From NCBI GenBank assembly GCA_964482475.1, contig CAYZXR010000001.1, forward strand, positions 37,997-101,996: a stretch of 64,000 bases of DNA, read 5' to 3'. Positions within the stretch are counted from its first letter, which is position 1; each line of letters opens with the position of its first letter. The translations under genes were made by a program, and so were the position numbers. The notes beneath the pieces are model-generated. The model searched no databases. It saw only the letters and a list, made by a program, of their open reading frames with translations, and was not told where the DNA came from. Below, in pieces: positions 9,001-33,000 of this stretch. Origin of the DNA: an uncultured Planctomycetia bacterium (lineage in GTDB: Bacteria > Omnitrophota > Gorgyraeia > Tantalellales > Tantalellaceae).

Positions 9001-12000
9001 GTTTCGACTGATTCGATACCATGTCTGTAGCTATCAGGACTAGTTGTAGCAACAGATATCAAGTCCTGATTCTCGTCATAATAATAGCTGTAATAATGTG
9101 TAACGCCTGTTTCATCTATCTCTCTGACAAGTTTTTCTTTACCCGGTTCTCCACTGTACTCGTATGTAGCTTTTCTGATCGGACTCGCGGCATACTCCTC
9201 AGTTCCATACTCGAGATATCTTGTAACTTCTTTTGCAACAAGCCTTCCATCATCACCATACTGGCATGCAGTTACAGAATCTATCTCTTCTATACCTGTC
9301 ATGGAATTTTTTCTGTATTTACGCTCTATATCGATATCCTCTTTGTCTCCAACACTCTCATAAGAAACGACAGAATCAATAACATCATAACCACCTACTG
9401 ATTCCTTGCTAGTGGTAACTGATTGCAACGCACCCATCGAGTCATAATTGTAAACACCGGTTCTTTCAACATCAGTATAATTAGCCTGACCATCCGCCGC
9501 GTAAGATATTGATTTTTCCGTACGTTCATGAGTGTCAACACCTCCGTATATGATCAAAGTATGTTGTTGGAAAAACCCGGACAAATCGCGTTCTATACTC
9601 CCATCCAAAGATATATCATACATGTTTGTATAGTTGATTTGATCAATAAAATCCAGATCTCCCCGATCCTTATCGCCGGCAATATCATCCTCATCAGCAT
9701 CAAGATACCCACCAAACCCGTCAACATTATGATAGGCGTCCGCATAATAACTATTATCGTTGTAATAGTAATAGCTACTTTCCGACAACAACCTCCAATC
9801 AATCACTTCATCAATTGAATCAAATTTCTTATCTTCCACTTTCACATATTGGATCTTTTCATAACCTTTCTCACCTTGATACTCCATGGTACGCTTTAGT
9901 GTTTTCGGATCAAATACGGTTTCTTCGGAACCGCTAACAGCAATTGATGGGTATGTGTAATCGTACTCATACGCCAGCATTTCATCTATCGCATGGTCAC
10001 TATCATATGTATACTCTATTCTTCCCGAAAGTATCAGCTCCGTCCCATCAGAAAAATAATTCGAGGAAAGTGTTTGGCCCACACTATCAAGTTCATGTTT
10101 AATCTGGTTTTGGTCTATAGCATAGTTTTCTACATTGTCTATTCTTTCATTCCCGCTAGCACCTTCATACTCGATTTTGCTTTCTTTTGTAAAGTCGTCA
10201 CGGTATCTTTCCATTAATAACATTTGTTTTGTGTCCACGTCATATATGAAATCATCCCAACTTTTTATTTCACCATTTGTCTGGTAGTAATTAATACTGT
10301 AATTGGCTTTTTCCTCGTCTTTCATACCGGTATATTGCGTACGGCTTATCAATGCTCCATCCTTCAGAGTCTCGGTATATCTCAAGGCTCCATGCATTTT
10401 GAGATATTCCTCGGTTACAACTAACGCGTCAATATCCAACAGAATATCCGACTCTGTCATTCCCGATATTATTCCTGAACAATTCAAAGCCTTAGACTGA
10501 AGATCGTTACTCATTGCCAGAAGATCTTCAGCAACCGCGCTTGTTCCCAAATTCCGCAAAACAACAATCTCGTCTATAGCATTTTGTATATTAGTTTTCG
10601 CCTCCTGCACAATGCTCGCCCTCTTCACGCCTGCCTCAGCAATATCTGCCATGACCAGTTCCTGTATCCTACCAAACTCATCTTTTATTGCATCATAATA
10701 TTTTCTCACCTCAATTGTTCTTCCCATCTCTTCGGAAATCCCTGTTATCCTTAAAAGAACATCTGCCGCGTAATCACTTTCACTTCCTGGAAGAGTTATT
10801 TGAACAGCTGTCACTGTGTCTTCGATATACTCCATTGTTTTCATATAAGCATACAACTCTTCTGCCTCGGTTTTGCGCGCTCCTTCTATCGCGGCATTAC
10901 TCGTAAGCACATCATTCATTTGAACCACAAGATTATAATATCCAAAAATCTTACTTATCTTACTCGCTTCCCCATACTGAGTCCCGTCTTCTTCATATGA
11001 CGACATAGAAGCAATAGCACTTGTCATACCGATAAGGCTGTCTTGTATCGCACTATCATAACTGATCTCCGCGACATAACCAATACTATCCTTGTACAGC
11101 ACGGCCTCCTCATACATTTCCTCAAACCCGTCTTTTGTCTCTTCCGCAGTTTCTTTAACACTCTTAGAATTCCATTTATCCGCACTATCGCTCATGTAAA
11201 GTACTGATTTTTCCATATATTCTGAAATTTTAGCTAAGTTTTCAAACTGATCATTAACTTTGACTTTATCCAAAATTTCTCTAGCGTCAGAAACTGAAGT
11301 AATTATGCCACTACCGCTAATTGCGCTACTAGCACGTGATGAGGTTTGTCTAATCGAGGCAATCTCCAATCCCTTAATCTTACATTCCGCATCAAGCGAC
11401 TCATACTCGTTTCTTAGCTCAGCTCCTGATGCCGGCCAAACCAATAGTCGGCTATTCGCTTCAGACAAATCTGAAAACGCCTGTTTTTCAGTATCAGTGA
11501 TCTCTACCAAAAGTTTATTATCAGTATCTATTGCTACCTGCAAGTCATCTATCGATTTTTCGAGAAACTCAACTTCAGCCTCTTTAAGGTAAACTTCTCC
11601 CCTCGCTCTCTGGGCAACGGCATCAGCGGTCCTATAGGACCCATCCCCAGCATCTCTCAATCCCTGTGCATATTCTTTAAGCATATCACGGCGCGATTCC
11701 AAGTCAGACAGCTCCGTCTCTAACACTGTCAACTGTCTCTGTTTTTCACTCTTTTCAGTTGCAAACGCGTCTTTTTCAGCTACAAGTTTTTCTTTTTCAA
11801 TAACAATGTTCTCATATTCATCTTGAAGCTTATTCTTCTGGTCTATCAAAAGATCTTCATAATCATCAGCCAATATTTTCGCGATATCTCTTTCCTCTTT
11901 GAGCTTGTCCAATTCCAAACTAACCGCATTATAGAGATTCTGCAAAGTTAATGCTTCTTGATAATCCTGAATAAACCCGGCATTACTGGTAAGTGAATTA

Positions 12001-15000
12001 GCTGTAAGTGTCATTTGAGCTGTCTTAAGCATCACATTCATCAAGCTTTGACTAGCAGCCTTGGCTTTTTCTCTCTCTTCATCAGTCGCACCTGACTCCA
12101 TTTTACTTATTTCATCTAGAAAACCAGTTAAGATCTGCTGACCAGCCTCTGCCTGCAAATTTGTCTGTTTTTTAAGATCAGCCGCGGAACTTTCACCTCT
12201 AAGTAAAGCTTTTTCAAGTTCATCCCTGCTACTAGCGCTAACAAGAGATTTGGTTATCTCTTCCGACAATCTAGCTGCCGCTGAACGCTGTGAAACGCCT
12301 TCATTCCTTTCTGTGATCCCGAGTACTTCCTCAGCAAGCCTGTCCCTATATTCGTTAATAGAATTAGTGTTGTTCTGAACATATTCCGCTAACTGCTGAA
12401 AAGAATTTGCTACCCTCAACGAATCCTGAACATCATCATAAAGTGATGCCTCTGCTTTCATTTGCAGATCCAAAGCTTCATCCTTAATATCTCTTGCCTC
12501 CTTGGAAAGCCCCTCAGATAGAAACATCCTGCTAATTCCCACGTTTTGTGAATTTCCAAACGCGTCTCTGCTATATACATCCACAAGCACATACCCTGCC
12601 GCAGGCGATGGAATACTCTCGGCTGACTGCCTTTTTAATTCCAGGCTACCATCCGGTAATGTCCTATACCCAGTCGGAGCATAAGTTTCTCCCGACCATT
12701 TAAAATAGGTCTGATCGCCTATCTTTTTTTCGAACTTATATTCAAGTTTCATGGTGTTTTCATCGGTCTCATCCCAAAGAACTGGTTCAGCTCCCAACTC
12801 CCTGGTTAATTTATCCAAAAATCCCGTCTTTTCCAGATCATCATCTTCTTTCGCAAAGTATGTCAAATAATCTTCCGAGGCTTCATACTCCGTTTGCGCC
12901 CATATCACTAATTCCCTGGTCTCAAAATAATACTTGTATTGTGCTTCTCTCTTTTTAACAGCTGCGTCATAAACAGCTTTTTTGGATATTGTATCCCAAT
13001 GTTCCGATCCTAAACCGTCCCTTGCCGCATCGTAAGCCTCTAAAGCATCTCTTTCTTCTGATAACGCTCTTGAATACTCCAGGCTAGCTATATCTCTAAT
13101 GGCCACAGCCTTATCCCACTTACTTTTCATTTCATCACGTCGGTCAGACGCTAATATTTTAAATCTCTCCGCAATTTTGATTTCTTCCACTTTTTGGTTA
13201 ACTTCATGCTCCTTTTCCCTATATTCACGTTCTTTTTCGTAGTATCCCGTAACAAGAGGAGTGGAAGTGGAATCGTCGAACCACGTAGCGTTTATTTCTT
13301 TATAGAGCCTAAACGAATCGTCAAGTTCATCACTAGATTGCAAAACAGGAATCGGCATCTGCGCCATTCTGTAATCGATCTCTCTTCTCTCAATGTTCTG
13401 CTGTTTTATCTCCATAAAATCATAAATATCGTCATTGATTTTCTCTAGTGCTTCTTCCATGGCGATTACCGCAAAATCCGGTGCGATCATCGAGTATGGT
13501 TTGGTATACGCAACAGTGTCGTGCGCCGTATAGGCATCATTATAGGCATTTGCCTCAACAGCTGATTTCCATTCTTCGTCAGACTCAAATATTGATCTAT
13601 CAACTGAAATGAATGTTCTTTCATAATAAGCAACAGCATCGTCTATCGCGTCAGTAACACTTTTATTGGTTGTAAAAGATTCCAGATCATGGTCAACACT
13701 GTAAGTGTCGTCCGTTGTTGCCCCTATTTCATCAGCATATTCCAAAGCCGTCTCAACAACATCCATATAAGCTCGTCTATATTCTTCCAGTGCCACATCA
13801 AGATTGTCTTTTGCAGCGTCTCGGGTAGATTGCAAATTTGCCAAAATAGATTCATCATCGATCGCATCAAGTTCTCTGTACCTTTCGTTGTATTCTTCAC
13901 AAGCATCCAGATATTTTTTATTTAACCTTTCAACATCTTTTTCCATCTCTTCGGCTGTCTGTCGTTTATAGTAAAGTATGTCTTCCATTAGGTCTTGAGT
14001 TTTTTTCAAATCCTCAAAACTCACCAGATCAACATAATAGCGATTAATGACCTTCGTCCTTAAAATCTTCTGTTCCTCTACCCATTCGTTCCACTTGGTA
14101 TAATCAGAATATACACTTTCAAAAGATTGCGTAGTACCGTTAAGAAAAACATCGTAATCTTCAAAATATTTAGTCCGCTTCGCCCTATCATAATCCGGCT
14201 CCATCGTGGCAACTAATTCCGCCATTGTCATATTCATTTCTTCTCTTGCATCTTCCATCTCAAGACGGGATTCTTCCATTTTATATCCAAGACTATCTAC
14301 TGTATGCCATGGAATGTCGGTATCTCTCTTGAGTATTCCCAGCTCGCTGTCTGGTTCCATAAAAAGTCCATCGTAATTATTTCTATTAGCGGATAGCTCA
14401 AATCCAATAGTCTCGCATCCATACAGTATCAATACTACCGGTATGACGAACACCTTTCCTGTATAGCTTTCATATATTTCATCTAATTCTTCAATTTTAT
14501 CGGCATAATATTCAACAACACTTATGCTTTCTCCTGTATCTTTCGCGTTTTTCCAGTTCGAAAACGCGATCTGTAAATCAACTTTCAACACGGCAATCTT
14601 TTCCTCGAGTCTAGCAAGAGCAACCAGTCCCTGCTTATAATTATCATAAGCATTGTCGTATTCCTCTTTTGCGTTATTGTATATAGCCTGTTTAACCTTG
14701 TATTCACCTTCAATGATTTTCTGCTCCGGAGTAAAGTCTACAACATTATCCATAGCGCTGTTGGCATCAGAAGTCAACTCATCCGAAATATCATCCATCA
14801 GCGCCCAAACACCATCCATATAACTTACCGTGTTAGTAACTTCTGTTTTAACCTGCTCAGCCTGGTCGGATATTTCAGACAGTGCACTTGAATATTCCTC
14901 GGCATATCTTATTGCCATTTCACTGTAATTTGCGCTTTCTCGCAAAGAATTTGCCTCATTTTTAGCCTTTGTATATTCTTTGCGTGATTTACTGGCAAGT

Positions 15001-18000
15001 TCATCTTGCGCCCACATAGCGATCTCAGCTTCACTCGCTATGTTATATGCTGTTTCCATAACAACTTTCGATGCAGATACAGATCCATCATCAATCGCTT
15101 CTGCCTGCAATCCTGCCATGTACTCATCATAAAAACTTTGAGCGATAAGTCTTTCAGAAATAATAAATTCCGTGGTTCCTGTTTCAGGCACACTGTATGT
15201 AAATGACACTGTAACTGTTTTGCCCGTAGAATTATCTGTCACTTCCAGTATGCCCCCGGAAACATCTAGATGATATCCGACAAGATTCCAATTAATCACT
15301 TCCAGGCCACCGGAAGAATCGACCATTATCTGCCCAATTTCAGTAACAGAAAGATTTTCATCTAAAGGATCTGAAAGAATATTATCGAGACTTTTCCGAT
15401 CGTAATCCTCATAAACTTTATCGGAATCTGATGAGCCATAGGAAATGTACCTATTGTATAGAGATTGCGCATCGTCGTCATTTATCACGCCATCAGCATT
15501 CTGGTCACTTATAGCGTTTAAACGTCCTATCCTTGCTTCAGCAAACACCGCCGAAGCTTTCGCGTCACTCCATATCAGTTTAAGAATCTCGTATTTACCT
15601 AACTCCTCGTTATATGTCTCTTTTTTAGCGTTGTACTTGTTAACCGCTTTTTCATATTCTTCCTGCGCTACTGCCGCAGTATGCTTGAATTCCGACAAAT
15701 TGTTTTCAGCCAATATTAACGCTTTCTTTTTCACGATAAGTACAGTATCTGTCTGAATGGCTTCGGAGTTTATCTCGGACATTCTGGATGTAATATCATC
15801 CACTTCCTGTTGCAGCCGCCTTCCTTCTTCTTCAGCATTATCACGCAAAGCTTTTATTTCATTCGCTATAAGATGTAAAAACTCAGCGCGTTCTTCCGTC
15901 TCTAGGGAAATATATCTGTCATTCAAATCATCGCCCGCCTGTCCGCTCCAATAAGAATAAAAATCAGGTGAAGGCAAATCGGAGTTACCATCATCGTACT
16001 GACCGTCATTATTCGAATCTACATAATCTTCGCCCACGTCCCACTGGCCGTTACTATTTGTATCGGTATATGACTCAGGATAATCTATCGAATATCCGTA
16101 CGCGGTTAGAATGTCAATTTCGGATACTGATGATTTCGCATAAACACGTGCAGTTGTATAAGTAGCCTGAGTTTCTACCTTAAAATATGTTTCTCTCAGT
16201 TCCTCTTCCATGGCCATGACTCTGTTCAAAGCTTCTTGAAACGCATCTAAATTAGCTTCCATTTCCTGAGCTTGAAGTCTCTTAAGTTCCGCTTCTTTTT
16301 CAGCCTCTTCAACCGCAAGCCTAGACTCTAATTCTGTCGTCCTTGCTAACATCTCAGCTTCCAAAGATTGATCAACATTTTTCACCGCATCATCCAGAAT
16401 GTCTCTTACTTTCTCAAAATTCGTTCTTGCCACATTCAGGATTGCGTCCTGAGTAGTAACATTGCTTCCTGCAGTCGCTTCATTTTGCCTTGCCGCACAA
16501 GCGTTTTCCTGAAGTTCAAGATCATATGGATTTGATACCATTAATGCCTGTGCCTGAAGCATTACAAGATATTTAGATTCGTATTCTTCACTTGCCGACA
16601 AATACCCTTCCCATGCCTCTGTAAATACCTCTCTCGTTACCTCAATATTCTGCTTATTCGTATAGTACTCATCTTTTTTAGTCTCGGCAAAGGCTTCCGC
16701 CTGTTCAACTGTCTCCGGCGAGAAAGATGTCATATCCATTGTTGCCTGAGCCTGAATAAGAGCATTTTCCGCGTACGCAAGGTTATCACTCAGCAATGTC
16801 TGCCTTGTTGTTTGATTCAGCAATGACTGGTACCCTGCTTGCGTATACAGTTTTATAATGTTCCCCGCTGTTTTCGCCTCCACTGACGCTGTATTCGCAA
16901 GAAACGCTCTTTCACTTGATCCTATCTGGAGTTCAGCCAATTCTTCTTCAAGGTACATAAAAGTATCATAGTACGCCCTTCTCGTTCCATAATCAGTCTC
17001 TGCTTTCATTTTGGTCAGCATATCCTGTTGCATATCAACCAAAACCTCTGCGCTTGTTTTTGCGTCTTCAACTGCTTTAGTGTTTTTGAGAACTGTTGCT
17101 GTCTCCATTAGAAATTCCGCAACATTTGCTCCGTCTGTCACCAAATACGAAACACCGTTCAACATATTAGGTACTTCATTCATGCTATCCCGCTGTTTGA
17201 TAATATATTCCAGTTTTTCTTCAGTTTTTAGTATCTCTCTTTCCAGCTCATCATTTGTCGAATCATATAAGAACTCATTTCTTAAGCGATCCAGCTTTTC
17301 AACCGTGACCTTATATTCAGAATCCATCGGATTACTCACGATAATAGACTCATAAGCAATCAACGCGTTCTGTGCTTCCCTTGCCGCCGCGTATACCTCT
17401 CTGGCCACCTGTTCCGCAAGATCGGCATTTTCCAAAGTAAATACCTCATTAATCAGATCATAATTTATGTCTTCCTTTAAATCATTAACCTCAATTTCTT
17501 TATCCTCGATCTCTTTCTTCAAAAGTTCGTTATCCACATCATTCACCAGACGTTTCTCCAAGGCTTCCAACTCGGCCTTCGCGAGCGCGTAACCATTATC
17601 TCCAAGCAAATACCCGATTCTGTTAATATTCGCTTTAACGGTAGAGGCCGTTTCATATGCACTTCTTTCCAAATCAGCAAGATTCTTTATAGCTCCTAGT
17701 AAAAGACCGTCTTCATCTTCAGCATCCGCGAAACCACCTTCTCTACCAAGCAAGTCTTTCATCCAATCAATGGTATTTTTTTGTTCCGATACTTTCCCTT
17801 CCAGCGTATTGAGAAGTGAATCAGCATAAAATTCCATATCCGCGATCGCGCCATAAACTTCATCTTCTTTCTTCGCCAGGAACAGTCTGTGTTCAGCGTC
17901 AGCAAGTTCTTCTTTTTTCGCGATTATATTTTCAGCTACAGCTCTTAAATTATCATCTTCAATAATTCCGTTTGAAATATTCTCTATAGTCTGTTTCTTT

Positions 18001-21000
18001 ATTTCAAGTTCATTAGCAATACTTTCCAATTCTAAAACCATAGCGTCAAATTGATCCAAAAGACTGGCTTGTTCGTTCAAGAGCGTACCTTTCTGAGCAT
18101 TGAGACTCGCAATGGCTTCTTCAAGAATAGCAATTGCTTCTTCATTTCCTTCTTCATTTTCTTCCTCAGCCAAGTCTGCCTCCGCCAGCAACAACGCGGA
18201 ATTTACCTCATATATCTCCAGATCTTTATCTTCCAGCCAGGTAATCAGCGAATCCAACTGGGTCTCTTCCGTGTGCACATCGGCACTCAATAAAGATATT
18301 TCGTCGACAAGAACAGCAATCGCATCATTGTAATCTTTCGTATATGCATTCAACTCATCCTCAAGTGTATCAACAACGTCTTTAGCTTCTCTCACTACAT
18401 CTTCCACTTCTGTCGCATAATACGCGTCCATCTGCATGGCAACGCCTTCCCTCATAGACTCAACTACTGCATACAGTTGTTCTAAATTGTCATATTCTGC
18501 TTGAACCTTCGTTGCTATCTCAGAATCTTGAATAATCTCATATACCGACCTAGCAAGCTCCGCATTACATCCGGCAAAAACTATGTCACTTAAGCCCTCT
18601 ACAACAACCTTATATCCCTCTATCTTGTTCCAAATTGTTGAAGCAGCAGTATTGTAATCCAATTCTGCGTCTATCGCATTTTCCTCAATGATCTCAGCGT
18701 CAAGAACCTCCTGTGCTACTACGGATAGTCCCTCTTCTATTTCTATCAGCTTTGGTTCCAACAAGCTCTTTGTCACATTCAATACCTCTTCTTCCTCACC
18801 TTCGGCAACATCAAGTTTTTCCTCTATCTCGGCTAATTGGAATTGAACGTTCAGATGTTTCAGCTCAAGCTCCCCTAATTCCACACGTTTCTGATCCGCA
18901 AATGACTTGACTAAATATGTACCTCCTTGATCCCCGTTTAGAGTATCGATAACAGTCTCCGTCCCTCCAGATACGAGACTATCGTATATACTGAAAAGCG
19001 GGGACAAACCACTTAGCCTGTCGGCTATCTCAACACTTACCGCGACAAGCACGTCTCTTTCCGCAACCATCTCACCCTTTAACTCACTGTCAACCTGTGG
19101 ATCATAGGTGGAATCTGACCATACAGTACTTATAACGCTATTTATGATATCAATTTCGTCATCTGTCGACGCTTTCCGCAACTCCAAAGAGGACCTTAAA
19201 CTATCTAGTTCCGCTGTTAGGCTGGAAGCATATCCTACTGAATCAGATCCGTTTGCCGCGGAATCTACCTCGATCTGCATGGTCTTCACATTAACAAGTT
19301 CATCAAGTTCATCAATTGACAAGTCTCCTGAACTTGAAAAATTGGTCACCGCTTTATCGTATAGCCATGAAGTTATATCGGAGAACGATTCTGTCGACAA
19401 CTCGTTCAAAGAAGCCAATGCCGCGTCCATAGATTGTGCTGTAGATCGTGAATACACTTGATCAACATATGCTTTACCCTCGGCGTTATAATAATACCCT
19501 GTTACTGAATCAATCGTTCCATATGTGAACTGTGAAACCCCGGCATTTGCCATTTGGGTATATATTTCCGATACATCAGACGCGTTAACAATACCGTCAT
19601 CGTTTACATCTTTATGAAATCTCAGCATATCCGCATACAGATCGAAATCTGTACTATTGACAACACCATCATTATTTATATCCACTTTTTTCAGCTCTGT
19701 TCCCGTTTGAAAATTCTTCGTATCCATATAGTCCAGCAAGTCCATCCATACCTCTTTATCCACTTCGTTCCTCGCCCCGTCACCATTTATATCAACAAAA
19801 TTGTTCAATGAATTGCTCAGCATGTCTATATCCACTGTATTAAGTTCCCCATCATTATTCATATCAGCTCTGATCTTCTCTTCCGCACTAACAAACCGCT
19901 GGCCCGCTTCCATAGTGGATATCGTTTTAACCTGTTCCTGTATATCTGTTAACACTTGCTGAACAATCGTAGCCATATCAACACTATCAGAAATTATAGT
20001 ATTAGACGGATATTTCAACGCCAGAGATTGCATAGGATTAAAGTAATCAGTCACAGCGTCAACTATGGCATCTATCCTCGCGCTCAAAGAAATAGCTGTC
20101 AGGGGACTTTCATCAATATAAGACCGCAGATTCTCCGCCATTTTCAAGTTCACATTAATCGTGGCTAACTTATTCAGGGCTTCTTCTTCCGCACTGATGA
20201 TATTTTTTATAGTTTGCTCGATATCCGACTGTTTAACCTCCAAAGCATTAACTTTCATCTGCAAAGAATCTCTATAACCAGCTACGGTTGCATTAGACGT
20301 GTCAAGTGCCAAAGCATCGTTAGCGGCATCCAGAATACTTTGCGCATAGATCAACATGTTATCCATCATCTCTTCATACGTTTCCGCTACCACGCTGACA
20401 GGAACAATATCGAGTTGAACCTGGATCGCGTCCGCTTTAAAGATTAGTTTATCGACAAGTTCGGGCAGATACCCCGCTTTTGCCTCTACCGTAAGAGCGG
20501 CATCATATGCCTTGAGTTCAGCGTCAGAAAGAACCCTATTCGCCCCAACATCTTCCTGAGAGATTAAAACCTTTCCTGAATAAATTTGTTCAAAATTATC
20601 TACTGTCATAACATAGGAATATCCATTTGACTCATAAGCCACCTCTCCATCATCAATATTTTCTATTGAAACAAAATGATCTCGACCATTGTTCTTAACC
20701 AAAGCTATAGCCGGCAATGTCACCTGTGATAGATCGCCCAAACTAATCTCTACGCCTTCCAAGTCAGCTCCACCAGCTTTTGCCAAACTCTTAAGCGTAA
20801 ACATCGTTGTCTCAAACTGTCCGGCTTCTGTCATATTGATCGCACCTGACAAGATATCCGAAATGATTGATGCCGCTGAGAGCATCTCTTCTTTGTCTGC
20901 GTCAACATTAAAATAATCGCCGAGGACATAAGACGCACAGTTTATTATCTGTAGACCCTGGTTTGTAAGCCATGAAGCTATGGTGGTTATCCCGCCCGTT

Positions 21001-24000
21001 AAAAGTACCGCAGGATTATTTACAGACAAGAAATCAGTAAATGGAGCGTAGAATGCATTCTGAGGGGCGTTGTATTCTTCAACGACTTTCTTGAAAAAAC
21101 CCGTTACAACACCCGCGATACCTGATGCTATCGCGAATGCTTTCTCTGTGACTGAATTATAAGACGTACTGCCAAATCCAAACGCAACATCACCAAGATA
21201 GTCAATGATCGCTTCTTGCCATGTCGATATTTCTGATACAATGCTTGGATCTTCAACTAACAACCTGATAAAAGTTTCGTCATCTCTTGCAAGAAGATAC
21301 TGAATGGTTCCATCGCTATTCGGTATCACTTGCAGATTATCACCAAGGGCAATTGTCGTCGTCACATCACCCGTAATCGTCTCAAACACTTCTATCAGAT
21401 CGGCACCATCAAAAACCGCGCGAAAAACAGTACCGTCATCCAGATTGGTAACGACTTCAACTCGACCGTCTACAATTGTCATCTCAGTATTCAAATCAGA
21501 CGGGTCTAATAAAACAGTTGTTGTTAATTTGTCACTAACCGATCTGACTATCCCTACACAAACCGCTTCAACTTCATAATAGACACTTCCAAGCTCCATA
21601 CTGTTAGCATACGCCGCCTCTTCGTCTCTTTCTGATGTCGCTATACGCTGGATGCTGTTGTATAGATCTCCCACGTTATCCCTTAGTTCTGATGAAAATA
21701 AAAGTAAAGCAATCAATTTTTCGGAATCATTTTCAGCCACTACCAATGTTTCCAGGTTTTCTGCAAGGTTCAGCATTTCCACACTATTGTTAAGATAGGA
21801 CATACCTTTAGTTTCTATGCCTTCCTGCATTGCGGCGATCTTTTCAATTGATTCCCGGGTATTGCTATTAGCCAGAATAGCTTTACTGGAGCTGGCAATA
21901 CTGATAGCCAGATCAATACCACCAGTTTCATTATACATACCCTCGATCTGCCTCAAATCCTCATTAAGGTTTTTGTAGGCCAAGTCTGCTATTTGCGCGA
22001 ATGAATATGCCCTTTTTGAAGATATAGCAAGTCCTGCGTTCTCAGTACATTGCGCAAGCACCTCAATATTAGCACGGCCTTTATCCGTCGAGGCTTCTCC
22101 GTAAATAGTTGAATATTCTGTTTCTTCATAAGCTTCGATTGTAAGCAACAATACTCTATTATTCTCTTCGACCATTTCATCTAATTTATAGACATTAACT
22201 ATGTCAATATTATCTAGACCGGCGGCGTAGGTATACAATTCATCAAGTTCCCCGTTTTTCTCTTCTATCCTGTTTGCCATTCTTTCGGCAACATTTTCAT
22301 AAGGAGTCAAAGTTATTAACTCGGAAACTTTAAGCATTGTATTAACGATGATCTTACCTTCATCGACTAACGAGTCACCGTTTGTATCGATTGCCGCTTT
22401 TTCTCTAACAATCATCTCGATCGCGCTTCTATCATTTTCTATAGAAGTTTGTGCGGACTCTAACATTGTCATGTCTTCCTCAGTCGCGGCAATAGCCACC
22501 AGAACCATCAAGGTCTCGATCGTCTCCATACCGACTTCAACTGAACTGGCACTCTCCAACGTAGACCTGTCCTGATGAGACAACTCATCTGAAATAATCA
22601 CCAACGCGTCCACCTTCTCAGTAACGGTCAAATTACCTCTTTTGCCTTCAATATCCGCGATATCGACCGCATTCCTAATCGCATTGATAGAAGATACCGC
22701 TTCATCCAATCTATCCTGCACCAATTGAGCGTTCCTATACATTTCCTGGTTAGTTATGTTATCATTGCTAAGATTTGTGGCCAAAACACTTGTCTCTCCC
22801 AACACGTTATATACCGTCAAAGCAACTTCTTCCAATGCCACCATAGTAGTAACATCCACGTCGTCTGAAACAATAAAACCGGTCATAATATTGTTAAGGG
22901 TCTGTACGGAGTCCAGCATCCTGTCTGCCTGATAGGTTAAGTTAGCTCCCTCCGTAACTTTGAATTCTTCCAGGGTAATCTTATCTTCTATCTCTTTTGT
23001 TTTCTGGGTAATCTCGCCAACAACATCCTCGATCTGCTGTTTTTTCGCTGCCATAACCGCTGTCAACGTGACTCCGTCAAGAACAGTATAAACTTCAGCT
23101 GTAAGCTCTTCCGCCATTTCGGTAATTATCAAAGACACTTCAACCATGCCTTTCGCGACAGTTATATCAGCAAAATTCCTGTCTATGTCCGTATGCATCC
23201 TGTTGACCTGTTCAAGATATTCTTCCGCGGCATCAGACAAATTCGCGACAGCTTTCTCAATAGCTTTTTCCCGAGAGGCTTCCACCATTTCCCCCGCCGC
23301 GGTCAGCATTTCATCAATTTCATCAGAATCCACTCGCATAGACTCCGTTTGCAACTCACCCAGCACCTCTTCCATAATCGAAACAAGAGCCATGGCGTAT
23401 GAAGCGTCTTTGGTAGCAAAAATTTCATCTCTAATAGTTTCGATAGTATTTCTATCTGAACGGGCTTCGTTAAGCACATACTCAAAATCCTGCGAAACAT
23501 TAATTGCCGCAAAAACAGTCTGTTCAATATTTTCATATGCTGAAACAATATTATCAAAAGATGTCTTCACGACAGCCAAGTTGCCAGCAATATCAGCATC
23601 CTCAGAATATTCCAGAGATAACAAATTAAGTTCAATTAAGTACTGTTCAGAATCTTTCAATAGCTGCTTAGAAAAGTCGTACAATGCCAAAGTCATTTCC
23701 ATATTGTCCGCACTAATGTAGCCGGTCAAGGAAAGCATCCGGCTCAAACTATTATTAACCGCGTTCACCAGATTATCGCCTTTCTGCTCAAAAGACGTAT
23801 ATTGCCTTAAAATATCTTTGGAATCCGTGATCAGGGCAAGAACATCATTCGCCGACTCTCCGTTAATTTCCGCCAATTCATTTATTTGGCTGTTATTTCC
23901 GTAGACGTCTGAAATAGCGTACAACTCCCGCGACAGGTTAAATATCTCAAGCGCGGCATCATACGCGATCTCGTAGAAAACAGAGGCTATTTCACTGTTT

Positions 24001-27000
24001 TGCGCGATCGTCATTTGTTCTATATTACCGCTTACTATATTAGCGTAATTTTCTATCATCGCGGACAATTCAACAGATCTCGTTTCCGCGTTCTGGATCG
24101 CTGAAAAAGTTATATTCAACCCTTCAATATAGACAACCGCATCAGCGATAACTTCCTGAGCAGCATCATTAAAAATGACCAGTTCGGGATTATCTGTCAC
24201 TAGTTCGGTAAGAGCATCGGCCGAATCATCAGCCAACATGACAAGCTTAACGGACAAAGCTACTAAGTCTTCAGCTGTAGCGCTATTATGTTCTTTATCC
24301 AGCCCTTCAGAAAACATCTTCGCAAGAGTAACATATTGAGTTATCGCGCTTACAGTCAGGTCATTATGATCATCCGGAACATCAAACTCAACTGTTGAAG
24401 ATCTTTCCGTTATATACGAAACACCGTTCTCGGACGTAATCCTGAGCGATTCGCCCCATGCTTTATCTGAATTACTCCCGACTAGATTGTTCATCTGCGT
24501 TTCATAATTTGAAGCATCCAAAACCAAAGAGTCTATAAGATTCTTGAGAGCTATCCTTTCTTCTTCACTTATAGATAAATCAAATGCTTTAATGGCCAGA
24601 TCCAGCACCCTGTCTAATTCATCGATATTATCAAGTATCTCCGCGGCTTCGTTATTGAAAAGATATGACTCATTAAGCCTGTTTTCTATTAACGCGACAG
24701 CAGCCGTCACCTGTGTCAATTCATCTAAAATAGTCAAAGCATCCGACGTGCCCGCGCTTAAAGCGCTATTGTAAACCTCTTCTACCAATTCCTTGGCTTC
24801 TTGGGCAAGATACAGCATAAGCTCTATCTCATCAATTGATAACACGGTCAAAGATTTCGCTTGCATCCCTTCAGCTATTAATCTGTTCTGTTCAACCAGT
24901 TCCAGCGGGGTCATCTCGATCGTTCCCGGTTCAAGTTCATCGACTAACTGATTCGCAATTTCCAAAGAAACGTTCAACCTTGCCAGCTCATTATTAAGTG
25001 CGCCTATGAGTTCCTGAGCTTCAGACGGGCTTGCCATCATCATGCTCATCCTCAGCACTATATCCGCCAACATCTCTACTTCCCCAACCATATTCTGTAT
25101 CGCACTTTCATCCGCAGCCGCTTCACGCCATTCTAAAACTCCTTCACCCCTAAGTAGCGTCATTTCCTCTGCTATGGCGGCGGCATTATTAGCGTACGAT
25201 ACGGACAATTCCACCGGATTTGTTCCCCATATCTGGAACAATGCCTCAATATCCGCCGCGTCTACCATACCATCTGTGTTAATATCATATGACGTCAGAG
25301 ACCCAATAGACTCTTGCAGAATACTCGCATCAATACTTGTCAATTTTGAGTCTTTATCAAGATCCGCAGCCACAACATCTTCAGCACTTATGTCAAATTC
25401 CGAAGCTTCCACTATCCGATTCAGAGTGATAACATCTGACTGGTCAATCATATTGTCCTTATTGATATCGATACGATTATCCATCGCGTTTTGTAACGAT
25501 ACTTTATCATCGTTGTCTATAATTCCATCGCCGTTGATATCCGCATCGCCTGTCCAACTGGTATACAAGTTCTTCCTGTAATAAGTATCTAACCTCGCGA
25601 CATCCTGGGCATTCAACTGTCCGTCTCCGTTAATATCTTTACCGCCATAGGCGTTTTCAACATACAGAAGTTTATCTTTGTTATCCACCATGCCGTCATT
25701 ATTTATATCAGCTTTTTCAACATCTGCTATACTGACACCGGCCTCTTCCTGCATTATCACCGTTCTTTCGACTTTAGCGACATCGTATTCTGTAAAAACA
25801 CCGTCACCATCCACATCCTTTATACCCGCAAGCGCGCCTTCCAGAATGTCCGCGTCTTCATCGCTGATCTGTCCGTCATCATTGATGTCTGATAATATGA
25901 TATCGGCTTCAGTATACTTATGACCAAGTCTCTGATACAACATCGCGTCTTCTAAGACAGCGATATCCAATCCATCAACCACACCGTCAGACACGCCATC
26001 CGCACCACTTACGTCGGATATTGAGTAATTATTGTAAGCATTTCTTAACGCCTCAAGATCACTTACATCAACCATTCCGTCGTTATTGACATCCAAAAGC
26101 TCGTCATTTTCTGTTTCTTCTTTCGTAACATCCAAATTATTAAATTCAATTATATCACTGAATCTTACAATATCATCTATGTCCAACTCTCCGTCACCAG
26201 TCACATCGGCGATAGAAGCCTCCTCCAGCATCCATTCAAGTTTCTGTTTATCTGAAATGGTAACCTCTTCGTCACGATCTATGTCAGCCGCCCTGATCTC
26301 ACCCGGCATCGGCATATCTGATTCATAGATATAATCGATCATATTTGTAAGAGTTTCGATATCCGCGGAATCCACATAATCATCAGCATTCATGTTAAAG
26401 AGATTAGCCTCCATATCAATGGTATGATAATATAAATCTTCATACGCATTATTATCTAAGTCGTTCACAATACCGTCTTTATTGATATCCGCGAACTCTT
26501 TCTCCTGTTCGGTAACCTCGTACGCAATAGATTCCCGTATATCTGAAAGCCGATTTATATCCGCCTCGTCTACACTACCGTCATCGTTAACATCGAACAT
26601 CTTGCGCTTATCAACCATCGTTTTATATATCTCGTAATCATTTTCAGTAAATTCACCGTCACCATCAATGTTCCCAGCTGTTGTCAAATCTTCCAATGAT
26701 ATTGAGTAACCCAGGTTATAAAAATCGATGATCTGCTGCATCGCTTCGACATCTTCTTCATTCGCTTTCTTGTCACTATTGAAATCAACTTTGTGCATAC
26801 TTCTTAACAAGTTAGACACATAATCATAATCAGTATAATCAACCTGCCCGTCATCATTTGTATCTGCTTGCATTATCGCTTCGGCATCTACATCCAGTTC
26901 TTTATCCCTAAGAATATCAATTACCCTGTCCACATCGCTGCGTCCTACCACACCATCACCGTCAACGTCTCTACCTTCCAACGCACTAATCGCGTTCTCC

Positions 27001-30000
27001 ACGCTTGTCCAGTCCGTCTCATCGACAACACCGTCACTATTGATATCTGCCTTGCTATAATCCGCAAGCTGCATCACGTCACCCTTCCTGATCCCCTGCA
27101 GAATATCATTCATAAGAGAAATATCTTCTTGATTGACCAGATCATCATCCGTAATGTCGGTTTCATCCACAAACGCCAAAGCCTGGCTTAAGGCGACCGC
27201 ATCCAGATCATCAATAACCCCGTCCTCATTGATATCCGGTCTGCCACCATCGGCTATCTTGACCTCCGAAATACTATAAATCGTCCCTTCAAGCTCAACT
27301 CTTCCTGTTTCTGTATCGGAAATATACAAGTTGCCATCCGCGTCAATAAAAGTACAGGTCCCGTCATCGTTCATCTTATAGCTATACTCCACGCCCTGCA
27401 CATCAAGAACACCGTCGTATACATGTTCACTTAATTCGTCATATTCCTCAACGATACTAATACTACCTGTGTAGATATCTTTCGTTATGTTATATACCCT
27501 GCCTTCTATGTTAATCTTGTCTATATCAGCATCCGTTGTGTACGCTCTATATCCATCATCCAGCGTATATGTACCGTCATAATTATCAAGCACCTCATAA
27601 AGCACCCCATTAAGATCAACCAGTTGTTCCATTATCGTAACACTTGTCAAATGGCGCTCCTCCAACTCATAATGTCCGGTCAAAGCGTCATATGAAATAT
27701 GAAAAATACCACCGTTCCATTCTATCTCATTTGTCACAAGATTACTTACAGAGCCTCCCAGACTAAAAGTACCATCATCATTCTGTCCTATGCCAATTCC
27801 ATTTTTATCAGATGGATTAAACTTGATAACTTCACGCCCTGAAGCATAGTCAAATCTTGACTCAGCGTAACGGTATTGTTCAACTAAAATGATCTTTCCC
27901 GTTGCATAGTCAGTCTCTATATCATACGTTCTACTTCCCAATATAACCGTTCGATTTATCTCACTTAGGATTTCCCCTCCACTATATGCCGCAAACAGAT
28001 ACACACCATCCGGATTCGCTAGAACATCATAGATTTCATCGTCTACCTCTATAGTCTGATCAGCGACTAAATAGCTCTCAACATGTGATTCAACTAGCTT
28101 AATATCTCCAGTTATTTGATCAATCACGATATCATACACAGTTCCCGCAACATTAACTTTCGTCGCACCTTTGCGCGTTGTATACTCATCTTCTTCGCCC
28201 TCAAAAGTATACGAACCATTTTTATGGTTTTTAACCCTGTAAAATTCACCATTCAGAGATATCACCTGGTCATATACCATCCGGGCCATATCAGCAATCT
28301 TTTTAAGAGTTACATTCCCGGAATTGTTAACGCTGATATCGTATTGCTCATTTCCGATTGTAACAACTCCATCATACGTGCTTACATACTGTTCTTCGTC
28401 CAACACGAAAGTATATGTTTCATCCTCGTTGTTTACAACATCCACTGTCAGGCCTTCAAGATCGATCAACTGATCTGCCAAATGCTCACTTGTCAGATAC
28501 GCGCCTTCTCGTTTTTCCAAAATCACATCGCCGTTGTGTTCTATCGTCAGATCATATATTTCTTCGTTAATCTCAACTATATTCAGCCCGGGATAACTAA
28601 TATAGGTATGTTGTCCGTCATCAAAAATATATTGACCATTACCCAAATCATTTACCGCGTAACGAATACCATCTAAGACAATAACTTCATCCGCGACAAA
28701 AGAGCTTGTTGTACTACCCGCTTCAACCAGTTCTAATTCTATTCCATTGATTACACCTAAAGCCATATCCGCCAGGACATCTGTGATCCTGGATACATCT
28801 TCCGAATTAACTTGTCCATCACCGTTTATATCAACTTGTCCGCTAATCGTGTTCGACAACAGCCTCATATCCTGATCGTTCACAACACCGTCATCGTTTA
28901 TATCCGCTTTGTTCAAAGTCCCGGGCTGCAATTGATCTAATTGTTCCATGCTACTCATTGCTCCCTGCAACTGAACCAAATCATCGACATCATATACACC
29001 ATCGGCGTTAAAGTCGCTTGTATCGACAAGAGGATAATCCCTGATCGCTTCACGGAGTCTGGCAGTATCTTCGGTTGTCACTGACCCGCTTCTGTCAATA
29101 TCCGCGCGCCTAACCATATCCTCAGAGACTCCTAGAGCCATAGCTTCCGCAATTTCCTCCATACGCTGTACATCCTGCTCGTCAAAAACACCACTTAGAT
29201 CAACATCCAGATCCTGGCTCAGTATTTCCTGTAAATCATCAGCATCGGTTTGATCTAGAACGCCATTATGGTTAACATCGGCGCTTTCAACCACGTTCGG
29301 CTGTAGCACCGGAGCCACCAGCTCGCCGTTATTGACGTTATCGTCGGTATCGTCGTAGTAAACCATCTCGTTCGGATCATACAACTTGTTATAAATATCC
29401 ATGAAAATATCATAATCTTCTCTTTCCGTCTGACCACTTCCATCAATATCATACTTATTACGCACAATATCATAGAGATCATTGGCATCCGAAAAATTTA
29501 CCGACCCATCTTTATTCACATCCGCTATTGCTTCCCAATCATTAATATTGTCAGTTGTGATCTTTGCTCCTCCTCCAAGAGGATCTTCATACCACATTGT
29601 CTTTTGGATGCTTTGAATATCAATGCTGTCAACTCTGTCATCACCGTTAACATCTTTATAGTTTCCGCTTATTTCCTCAAATAGTTCGATATCATTTTTA
29701 TTTAAGATCCCATCCTTATTAAGATCAGCTTTTTTTACGACTTTCGGCTGCTGCAATTGTCTTTTATATACATCCGACAAAGCATATGTCGTACCTTTGA
29801 TATCAACACTATCTTCACCTGTCTCTTCGTCGTAATAGCTATAATAAGTGTTTATCTTGTCCTTGAACCTATATGTACCATCTTCTTCATCTCTTGTGAC
29901 CCTATAGTTAGTGCCCTCGATTACAACCGTGTGTTCATCATCCGTTCTTTCGGTATCCGGTCTTTCGACTAAAGTTACTTTGCCTGTTTCAATGTTAGTT

Positions 30001-33000
30001 GCGATCTCATACAAAACCTCATCCAGCGCAACTAACTCAACATTCAACCCGTCTTCAAGCGCAAAATAGCTTCTTTCATATAAACCTTCTTTTGTCTTAA
30101 AATTATGCGTGCCATCGTCCATGTGTGTAACCTGATAGTCCACTCCCATAGCCCTAATTGACTCATCCGCTGTTTTCGTACTAACAATGATCGGACTGTC
30201 TATTACGGCATTGCCCTCATCACCTATAGTGATTTCCAGAACCATACCCTTAATATTAAGCAACATTTTCTCATCTTCCAGATAGCTAAGGTATTCGTTC
30301 GTCCCGTCATTAAACGAATAGATACCGTCAGAAATGGTTGTCACTATGTATATAGTGTTATCTATCTCAAGCGTCTGGTTATCAACTGTCTGGCTGCTTA
30401 ATGGAAGGACTCTTTTAAGAATAACAGCCGAATCAATCTCAGAAATAGCGTACTTGACACCTTCAAGATCAACATAATGCGTTAAGCCTTCTTCATAGCT
30501 GTCAGCCGACATCACTCCGTTAAATATCCTGTATCCTTCGTCCTGTATAGAAACATTGTAGTCAATACCATCCAATCTTATCACGGTATCCGCGGCTTTC
30601 ACACTTGAAGAATCCACTGATTCCAAACTCAATGTTCCATCAGCGTCTTCAATCACTGTTAAAGTTACTTCATCAATCGTTACCTGACTTTGATCATTGC
30701 TATCAGCGAATATCTCTCTCTCGATAGCTATATCACCCGAAACTTGATCAAGATCAATACTGTATTCCTTATCGCGAATATTGACCTCATTGTTTTCATT
30801 TAAATAATAAAACGTTTTTTCAACAAACTGACCGAATTTTATACTGCCTATCTGCAAAGGACAGTTGCTATCGCTATTCGTCCAAACCAGTTTAACTTCA
30901 TTCGTTCCTGACCCCAGATCAATGTCAAGCATGCCCGTAACAAACTCCCCACCATTCACCGGAACTTCGATCGTTCCTTGCTGTTCACCATTGACATATA
31001 CGGCAAAATTGTATTTGTAAGTAGAATTATCTCCGTAATGATATCCGTCATAATAATAGGAGCTGACCGGTTCCAGAACCTGCCTTGTATCAACGACAAG
31101 ACTATGTAACCCCGCTTTGTCCACATCTAACATATACGTTAAATACGCGCCTGAGCCCGCAGTATTAAGCATATTGTCCGAGATCGTCCAATCCGAACTT
31201 CTGTCAACAGTATCCACAACATCCTGTTCTTCAAAAACCTTTTCCATATCCAACGGACTTCCTGAAGCAACCTGTATTCCATAACACCCGATTTCGTCCT
31301 GAACCCATTCAAAAGTGTAATCATCAATCTCAATCGTATTATCTCCGACATTTACACCTTCCTCCGTTTTACTTACCTTGTATGTTCCATCACCGTTATT
31401 CAAAATGTCATATTCCTGACCATCTACTGACACCTTCTGATCATACGTCTCAAAGCTTCCAAGATCCGGCTGACTCAAAATAACTTTATCACTCACAATA
31501 TCTTTTTTAATATCGAATGTAACCCCTTCAATGTCTATCTGTCCTGTATCCTTATTGCTAGTATAAACATCAGTATCCTTATCCATAACATTGAACGCAT
31601 ATAAACCATCGGAATCTGTAATCAGATTGAATATTTTTCCATCAAATTCAAAAGAAGCGCCTTGTGTAAACTGAGATTTTTGTGTTGTAAATATCGTGTA
31701 ATCTTCTTCGTTGATCCTAAAATCAGCATTAAAATCCACCGGATCATCGCATGCTTCTATAAATATACTTTCCACTAAAAGGCCTTCATCAAGCGAAGGT
31801 TCATCCATGCTTTCAAACTTTAATATGTGCCAGCCCGCTTCCAAATAAACATATTCTTCGGCTAACTCGAGTTCATTGATATTCCTCAACACTTCAAGTT
31901 CCGTGGTTTTCTCGCCGTCAACATAGATCATAAAAGAAGAATATTCCGGTTCCGGCGAATCCTTGACGCCCCAATACTCTACCCATTCATCGGATGAACC
32001 TGTTTCCTTAACACCTATATGTTCTATTTCAATGTTACCGTAGTTTACACCGCTATCAATCACCGGATAGAAACAGAAATTACGGATCGTCCCGGACCAA
32101 TTCGCGTTGTCCGCCATGTCGATATAATAAGTATGATATTCCCCGTCAGGTATGATGAGAAAATCTTGATACCCGGCTCCGGAACTGCTGTCCCAATACA
32201 ACCGCGCGGTGGTACCCGAATCGGCTTTATATTTAATTTCAGCGTATTTATTGGTGTCTGCGTTAACATCAATCGAATACGGACTGGCGAAACGCGGACT
32301 CGTACCCGTAATCTGGGCTGATATAGCTCCTTCCGGAGTATAGGTAAACGAACTCAGGCCGTAATATGATGACGCGTACCATGGTTCATCATATGTGCCA
32401 CCGGACCAGTTCACTCTATATTCATAAACCGTATCATTCTTAGCCGACAGTCCAACTTTATGATACCCTGATTCTTCAATGTTCACTTCATAAGTGATCG
32501 GCAAATATTCTCCATACCCATACATGTCGTAGCCCGATCCTAACGTGCTCACTTCAGCACGGTGCAAAACATCGCCGTCCTTTACCCACTCATGGTAGCT
32601 TTCATCCCAATAATAGTCTTCATGATAATAGTCTTCATCAATTGCTCTTGAAGACCAGAGATCCGCGGCATTTATCTCTATCCTCTGCTGGCTAATGGCA
32701 TTCCGAACTATAGCGTCATCATCGTCTCCCACTATGCCATTATTATTCAGATCAATCTCTAACTTCTTAACCAACTCAACTCTTCCATCCGTTTCGTCCT
32801 CAAGCACCAAATAAACCACATCATCGATCTCAACATTATCAACAGGAATCTTATCTTCCTCAACAATAACAAAATTATCTATTCCCCATGATGCTCCCGT
32901 TGCCCCTTCATTAAGTGTTGATCCGAATTCTAACACTAATTCATCTGTACTGTTTGTAACTAGAATGGGTATTTCTACATGTTGTACAAAATCATTATAA

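Follow-up and report, generated by a model that had tools for sequence, protein, structure and literature searches.

What kind of structure is formed by roughly 5,000 consecutive residues, rich in helix-favouring amino acids, that lie deep within the product of a single bacterial gene? Giant bacterial genes of tens of kilobases, mostly reported from Omnitrophota, are a recent discovery and are largely unannotated. The gene considered here occupies a 64,000-nucleotide stretch of contig CAYZXR010000001.1 (positions 37,997 to 101,996; hereinafter, the window) from an uncultured bacterium assigned to Omnitrophota. An earlier examination of this DNA, made from the letters and their translations without database searches (the sequence-only reading), flagged positions 10450-25050, equivalent to amino acids (aa) ~12,982-17,849, as an uninterrupted alpha-helical segment that would extend as a stalk or fibre for hundreds of nanometres. 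The flagged 14.6 kb is a genuine helix-rich stretch of roughly 5,000 residues in one open reading frame (ORF). Thus, the claim of a predominantly alpha-helical region holds; by contrast, that of a single helix or coiled coil of ~5,000 residues fails, given that the modelled part alone breaks up into 44 helices, none longer than 114 aa.

A giant reading frame and its helix-rich span

A six-frame stop-codon map shows that the minus strand of the window is free of stops over 21,332 codons (positions 3-63,998) and that this frame is open at both window ends; the remaining five frames contain 685-2,781 stops each. Codon usage is consistent end to end, with correlations of relative synonymous codon usage (RSCU) of r 0.86-0.96 and a GC content at third codon positions (GC3) of 0.33-0.39, and the GC skew of the plus strand is negative throughout. 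Because the frame is stop-free and its codon usage uniform, the window is an inner slice of a single gene of more than 64 kb, with a product longer than 21,332 aa. The listing of ORFs for the window is nearly empty because the giant ORF overruns both ends; the window carries no other gene, and Rfam yields zero matches anywhere in the 64 kb. Two plus-strand ORFs antisense within the helix-rich span (23,146-23,721 and 25,042-25,581) lack a family match, lie opposite a GAN-rich frame and were taken as chance. The encoded protein as a whole is extremely acidic (net charge about -2,580; D+E about 20%, K+R 7-8%). Residues are numbered from 0 throughout, such that index i corresponds to window coordinate 64,000-(2+3i).

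The amino acid composition of this protein shifts sharply near aa ~12,800 and again near aa ~18,000. In the 13 consecutive 400-aa blocks between aa 12,800 and 18,000, Gly+Pro amounts to 3-8% and A/L/E/K/M/Q/R to 37.5-55%, compared with 7-13% and 26-37%, respectively, in the 32 blocks that make up the first 12,800 aa; overall, Gly+Pro is 5% in the span vs 9.6% elsewhere, and helix formers make up 41-55% vs 26-37%. Sequence reading put the edges of the span at aa ~12,930, where a dockerin array has just ended, and at aa ~17,890, just before a Tyr/Asp-rich region. The signals expected of helices accompany this composition. Local hydrophobic power at a period of 3.5-3.6 residues is 1.6-2.1-fold in the span, whereas shuffles give ~1.0 and the N-terminal part ~0.9, and the hydrophobicity of the span shows positive autocorrelation at lags 7, 11 and 14. 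Oppositely charged residues at i and i+4 form 236 pairs, where shuffled sequences have 162 +/- 11 (z about 6.6).

Two segments of the span, aa 15,150-16,350 and aa 17,040-17,593 (1,753 residues, or 36% of the span), were modelled with AlphaFold2 (AF2), which was run without an alignment because there are no homologues to align. The helix content assigned by DSSP is 69% and 71% in the two segments, respectively. The sequence-only reading is therefore borne out on several counts: the helix-favouring, Gly/Pro-poor composition is real and sharply bounded, the secondary structure is mostly helix where it was modelled, both peptides quoted in support are present on the minus strand (window 17,400-17,459, aa 15,513, and 22,380-22,439, aa 13,853), and no internal stop divides the stretch into separate genes. 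A logistic classifier of secondary structure trained on the two DSSP strings was dropped: from one model to the other it reached an accuracy of 0.70-0.78, where the baseline stood at 0.69-0.71, and it assigned 54% helix to the beta-rich N-terminus.

Helix lengths, repeats and relatives

The 44 modelled helices, split by loops, have a median length of 15.5 aa and a mean of 27.8, and 11 of them reach 40 aa or more. Runs free of both Gly and Pro have a mean length of 19 residues and a median of 11 across the span; three reach 100, and the longest is 137, with the longest Pro-free runs extending up to 627 aa. A strict heptad scan (hydrophobic residues at 7 or all 8 of the a/d positions, no more than 3 strong hydrophobics at other positions, no Gly or Pro) identified segments of 28-79 aa that cover 14% of the span, compared with 1-4% in shuffles; the filter, home-made and conservative, missed the AF2 hairpin described below, so that this coverage is a lower bound. 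One 40-mer in the span qualifies as E/K-rich single alpha-helix (SAH) sequence, and we found no SAH domain.

The sole confident part of the AF2 models is the core of an antiparallel helical hairpin (aa ~17,370-17,520; pLDDT, the predicted local distance difference test score, 70-92). The modelled hairpin is about 15 nm long and doubles back on itself instead of extending as a rod. A Foldseek search with the second model retrieved generic two-helix hairpins only (YscO, SMC arm fragments, MacA), all with E > 0.03; the first model (1,200 aa) was too poor for a fold search, and its DSSP string alone was used.

These observations bear on the proposal that ~4,900 residues form a single unbroken fibre, alpha-helical or coiled-coil, and thus a rod of hundreds of nanometres. 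Its attraction lies in the helix-favouring composition, the heptad-type autocorrelation (lags 7 and 14), some stretches of 74-137 aa that lack Gly and Pro and the long Pro-free stretches, but a Gly or Pro falls every 19 residues on average, the hydrophobic autocorrelation has faded by lag ~21, and the strict heptads end at 79 aa, whereas a rod of the myosin or M-protein type has an unbroken register over hundreds of residues and is almost devoid of Gly and Pro. Moreover, the helices are separated by loops, the best-modelled piece folds back, and beta and calcium-binding modules and a peptidase domain are inserted along the way.

Repeats of the spectrin or apolipoprotein type, which the sequence-only reading had raised as the other option, did not emerge either. 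Self-BLAST of 300-aa tiles (E <= 1e-5) over aa 12,900-18,000 found no repeats except a dockerin block and a 32-aa Ca-loop motif, whereas the first 12,900 aa are rich in repeats at the same threshold. At low stringency (E <= 10), the best alignment within the span scores 25.4 bits and those of locally shuffled controls 25.0-30.4, and tracks of smoothed hydrophobicity and of helix breakers show no autocorrelation peak above 0.1 at lags 20-400. A bundle rod of the spectrin or Embp/Ebh type is thus not apparent, with no tandem repeats of ~100-130 aa and no FIVAR/GA or spectrin match in Pfam for the span. Alpha-solenoids of the HEAT/ARM/TPR type, which are common in Archaeovorin-type giants and consist of regular helices of 12-20 aa, likewise have no Pfam match in the span even at E <= 1, and the 11 modelled helices of 40 aa or more do not fit that pattern.

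The search for relatives was almost entirely negative. A word-index search of about 4,200 aa of the span against an index of 5.8 billion proteins gave no homologue, and phmmer with aa 12,900-17,900 against PDB gave no match. The helical blocks are unmatched in Pfam (E <= 0.01 throughout; E <= 1 for the span and for aa 10,000-12,000), NCBIfam and PHROGs, where C39 and dockerin are the only families found in the span. Contig scans of GTDB representative genomes, JGI metagenomes and IMG/VR yielded no relative; alignment A1 of the beta-rich region (Table 1) was too divergent to serve as a probe. When aa 16,533-17,733 were compared exhaustively by phmmer with 1.84 billion representatives, two matches emerged, one between an immunoglobulin (Ig)-like module of the span and an RTX-type adhesin and the other to a 103-aa fragment (P0001/L001), encoded on a 513-bp metagenome contig in ENA (ERZ1742237 NODE_319667). 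Over the 89 codons compared with this fragment, the nonsynonymous divergence (dN) is 0.28 and the synonymous divergence (dS) about 2.0, i.e., dN/dS of about 0.14, with 49% identity at third codon positions and 74% at first and second positions. Because dN is so much smaller than dS, purifying selection is indicated for this stretch, on the evidence of one short pair. The L001 contig has low coverage, an adapter-like end (...GRASCRERV) and an in-frame stop upstream of the homologous part, and is probably artefactual in part.

Thus, a sharply bounded helix-rich region of ~5,000 residues, devoid of repeats and of any detectable family, sits in one giant protein. The long helical surface rods known so far consist of tandem repeats, and the origin and upkeep of the span would therefore call for another explanation; for upkeep, this need follows from purifying selection in the single 89-codon stretch.

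Inserted modules and a proposed extracellular scaffold

The region is neither uninterrupted nor helical in every sample, as had been stated. It contains a C39-like peptidase domain, dockerin pairs, an acidic Ca-loop, an Ig-like module and two further beta inserts (Table 1). The match to the C39 profile PF03412 (E 1.6e-8 / 9.1e-9) scores 34.9-35.7 bits against a curated cutoff of 22 and aligns profile positions 43-129 of 133; the C39 region has no sequence match in PDB. A Cys at aa 14,353 (NCASYVLG) and a His at aa 14,441 (RDHFVS) are present in motif-like contexts and are the candidate catalytic residues. Of 45 strict Ca-loop motifs in the window (1.1 expected), three lie within the span. The sequence-only reading had noted calcium-binding motifs at ~16,000 and ~19,700 as well as the C39-like domain, and all of these were located where it had put them. 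A 32-aa Asp-rich loop occurs twice in the protein, at aa 15,972-16,003 and at aa 19,748-19,779 (window ~4,660-4,760), about 3,800 aa apart and with 66% identity, and is the only sequence common to the span and the C-terminal region. A Kyte-Doolittle scan of the span reveals no convincing transmembrane (TM) segment (maximum hydropathy 1.82), one borderline hydrophobic segment at aa 16,512-16,536 and no hydrophobic hairpins of the kind found in pore-forming toxins. Motifs resembling double-glycine leaders are not enriched in the span (1 vs 1.3 expected).

Because dockerin, Ca-loop and Ig-like modules are embedded in it with no TM segment between them, the whole span lies, most likely, outside the cell. 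We favour, with about an even chance of being right, the view that it is an extracellular, acidic, segmented scaffold of serial helical hairpins or bundles in a dockerin-bearing giant surface protein. The span would be a non-repetitive string of discrete amphipathic helices, typically of 10-60 residues and occasionally of 100-114, that would pack, as in the one modelled hairpin, into antiparallel hairpins or small bundles, with the C39-like peptidase, a few dockerin/Ca-binding modules, the Ig-like module and two more beta inserts threaded among them. Such a stalk might be semi-rigid, measure tens to perhaps a couple of hundred nanometres, and space a distal adhesive array (about 59 beta modules and dockerin arrays) from the C-terminal part; the embedded peptidase may process the giant protein. 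By model arithmetic, 4,960 aa x ~0.7 helix x 0.15 nm / 2-3 helices per bundle gives about 170-260 nm end to end, less if packed; a single helix of this length would measure ~730 nm on the same kind of arithmetic. If the span is a stalk, its length would set the working distance of the adhesive array of the cell.

Several points weigh against this view. The mean pLDDT of the AF2 models is low, 37.5 and 49.8, and what can be used of them is the local secondary structure and one hairpin; 64% of the span lies outside the modelled segments. In the absence of homologues, co-variation and conservation give no support. Both ends of the gene lie beyond the window, and hence any signal peptide or membrane anchors are out of view. 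A spacer or scaffold role is plausible, and is drawn from position and composition only. Finally, by the charge-hydropathy (Uversky) line, 17 of 48 blocks of 200 aa are slightly on the disordered side, with the span overall on the folded side. Coiled-coil-like sequences often fall marginally on the disordered side of this line.

The alternative that survives best, although we consider it somewhat unlikely, is that the span serves as no structural spacer at all and is instead a polyprotein-like chain of unrelated all-alpha domains (binding modules, effectors or toxins), possibly freed by the C39-like peptidase. The wholly non-repetitive sequence, purifying selection on the one comparable stretch, and the embedded domain with Cys and His in place are all compatible with such a chain, as is the suggestion that C39 domains may cut a propeptide of larger size (West-Roberts et al. 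2023, bioRxiv 10.1101/2023.11.21.568195). However, no helical block matches a family in Pfam, NCBIfam, PHROG or PDB, the span has neither an excess of double-glycine motifs nor hairpins of the pore-forming type, and the modelled helices are long and hairpin-like and not compactly globular. Should the span nevertheless be a string of distinct domains, it would be a large reservoir of unknown folds.

Improbable, but worth weighing, is that much of the span is intrinsically disordered or folds conditionally, e.g., upon binding Ca2+ or a partner, such that the helical signal would reflect propensity and not a stable structure. The span carries a net charge of -565 over 4,960 aa (D+E 19.7%, K+R 8.3%), which, like the blocks across the Uversky line and the low confidence of AF2 over most modelled residues, could be read in this way. 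Against this, its hydrophobic content of 33% differs little from that of the beta-rich N-terminal part (35%), and the amphipathic periodicity of 3.5-3.6 and the excess of i/i+4 pairs are characteristic of helices that have formed. Low pLDDT is to be expected when an orphan sequence is modelled with no alignment, and the dN/dS ratio is low.

That the span is cytoplasmic or membrane-embedded, as in multi-TM giants of the Archaeovorin type, appears highly improbable: the missing gene ends leave the topology unanchored and there is the borderline hydrophobic segment, but modules that are typically extracellular recur along the span with no TM between them, and the Kyte-Doolittle scan of the 12,900 aa upstream (aa 0-12,900) shows no TM helices beyond two borderline peaks. 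The continuous fibre is largely refuted and retains next to no probability, and the idea of a single ~700-nm helix should be abandoned.

The rest of the protein and comparison with known systems

The N-terminal region comprises about 59 copies of a beta-rich module of ~140 aa, the last ending at aa 12,247, with dockerin/EF-hand arrays interspersed. Each module consists of sub-repeats of ~35 aa ('VxIxGxxYxV...DGxYxF'), copies are ~25% identical, and none has a Pfam match; the modules may be equivalent to the beta-helix or ladder structures that have been described in giant proteins of Omnitrophota. Dockerin_1 was detected in 9 of 22 Pfam tiles. Three tandem units of 268 aa (window 32787-35198, aa 9,600-10,404), each with a dockerin pair and a beta domain of ~200 aa, are 50-68% identical to one another; because they are far closer mutually than the other repeats in the protein, this suggests that they were recently duplicated.

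On the C-terminal side, the span is adjoined by the Tyr/Asp-rich region (window 8841-10298, aa ~17,900-18,386), which has an RHS/YD-repeat-like look (IEYTYDSDH, YYSYYYDENQD) and no Pfam match. Next come about 26 tandem pentapeptides GYD-x-N/D (window 8454-8840, aa ~18,386-18,515; DNA period 15/30), also without a Pfam match, that may be a Ca-binding or beta-roll-like element. A low-complexity Ala/Glu/Thr/Val tract of ~215 aa (window 6762-7406, aa ~18,864-19,079), encoded by (GCA)n-like DNA, gives the top hydropathy peaks of the window and spurious plus-strand ORFs at 6,565-7,197. It is flanked on either side by one copy of a duplicated module of ~230 aa (aa 18,520-18,744 and 19,091-19,432; 35-55% identity). 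The 6,800 aa of the window that follow the C39-like domain contain no SecA match and no clear TM segment; the ORF runs past the window.

Table 1. Features of the giant reading frame, with residue numbers and window coordinates
Feature	Residues (aa)	Window coordinates	Strand	Evidence
Giant ORF, containing the helix-rich span	21,332 codons	3..63998	-	0 stops
N-terminal beta-rich region	158-12,247	27258..63527	-	Iterated hidden Markov model search; alignments A1, A2; Pfam Dockerin_1 and EF-hand
Last dockerin array, directly N-terminal of the span		25209..27248	-	Pfam Dockerin_1, 7 stretches, E 1.5e-41; Ca-loop motifs
Helix-rich, non-repetitive orphan span	~12,930-17,890	10329..25208	-	Composition, periodicity, salt bridges, AF2 DSSP, no repeats
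Helical block I	12,930-14,140	21579..25208	-	Composition, sequence reading; Pfam and NCBIfam negative; outside the AF2 segments
Beta-looking insert 1 (putative)	~14,140-14,290	21129..21578	-	Sequence reading only
C39-like peptidase domain		20529..20978	-	Pfam PF03412 match at aa 14,395-14,481
Dockerin pair(s)	~14,705-14,815	19554..19883	-	Pfam Dockerin_1, 2-3 stretches, E 5e-13; Ca-loops at aa 14,772 and 14,796
Helical block III	14,815-15,972	16083..19553	-	AF2 DSSP helices of 61, 70 and 107 aa; pLDDT 37.5, secondary structure only
Asp-rich Ca-loop-like motif	15,972-16,010	15969..16082	-	Self-BLAST; non-helical in AF2 DSSP
Single EF/dockerin-type loop and beta insert 2	~16,160-16,290	15129..15518	-	Loop DQNADGVINDDD at aa 16,164; strands at aa 16,223-16,265 (AF2 DSSP)
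Only helical stretch with a detectable relative	16,722-16,804	13587..13832	-	P0001/L001, 57-60% identity, phmmer E 9e-18
Single Ig-like beta module	17,074-17,149	12552..12776	-	Match to Ig-like repeats of RTX-type adhesin P0002; strands in AF2 model 2
Antiparallel helical hairpin	17,340-17,453 and 17,459-17,559	11322..11981	-	AF2 helices; 5-residue turn at DAGDGS

By its architecture, the gene fits the Dockerin-type giant proteins of Omnitrophota (West-Roberts et al. 2023, bioRxiv 10.1101/2023.11.21.568195). Members of that class are at least 30,000 aa long, are encoded in Omnitrophota genomes and combine dockerin/EF-hand arrays, a ladder of carbohydrate-binding-module-like domains and dockerins, and bacterial thrombospondin type 3 (TSP3) and discoidin repeats, with no TM along the N-terminal bulk; in one of three examples, TM anchors and SecA-like domains come after a C39-like domain in the C-terminal part (same source). 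The protein analysed here is similarly a giant single ORF with many Dockerin_1/EF-hand repeats, units of a dockerin and a beta domain of ~200 aa, an N-terminal bulk without TM, a C39-like domain toward the C-terminal part and large unannotated stretches. Unlike the described members, it has no TSP3 (PF18884) or F5_F8_type_C discoidin match in the window at the Pfam thresholds given above, although the gene extends beyond the window, and its length is known as a lower bound, 21,332 aa, to be set against the at least 30,000 aa of the class. A 'dockerin-bearing' class has also been defined by Nielsen & Lui (2026, bioRxiv 10.64898/2026.06.07.730766), who note an unannotated 'dark-matter fraction' that awaits structure prediction. 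Their catalogue of 916 Omnitrophota proteins lists up to 15 copies of Dockerin_1 per protein, compared with at least 27 individually significant stretches in our window, although counting thresholds may differ. A helix-rich region of ~5,000 aa is absent from the texts of both papers; it is thus an undescribed feature of Dockerin-type giants, insofar as the gene belongs among them.

At the level of the individual hairpin, structures of the YscO/FliJ type, SMC arms and MacA superpose on aa ~17,370-17,520 (for 4mh6, TM-score 0.76 on the target and a root-mean-square deviation of 3.5 A over 154 columns). With identities of 10-23% and E > 0.03, the likeness is one of shape only, with no sign of common descent or shared function.

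At the level of the whole span, Embp/Ebh comes nearest as a working analogy for a stalk made of helical segments: in these giant staphylococcal adhesins, alpha-helical bundles line up like beads on a string to form a rod that is rigid and elongated (Buttner et al. 2020, PMC7587433). It is conceivable, although unlikely as a complete package, that the span is a new, non-repetitive extracellular helical stalk in which about 5,000 residues of unique sequence form one antiparallel hairpin or bundle after another, giving a rod of 100-250 nm that sets the reach of the adhesive dockerin array of an episymbiont or predator and is cut or remodelled by the C39-like peptidase. It would then be a counterpart of Embp/Ebh in function, with no detectable relatives, that had arisen without tandem duplication. 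The differences are nonetheless substantial: Embp/Ebh has about 50 tandem F/FG (FIVAR-GA) repeats, whereas the span lacks both detectable repeats and any match to FIVAR or GA, its helices seem longer, with hairpins of ~100 aa, and unrelated modules are inserted among them.

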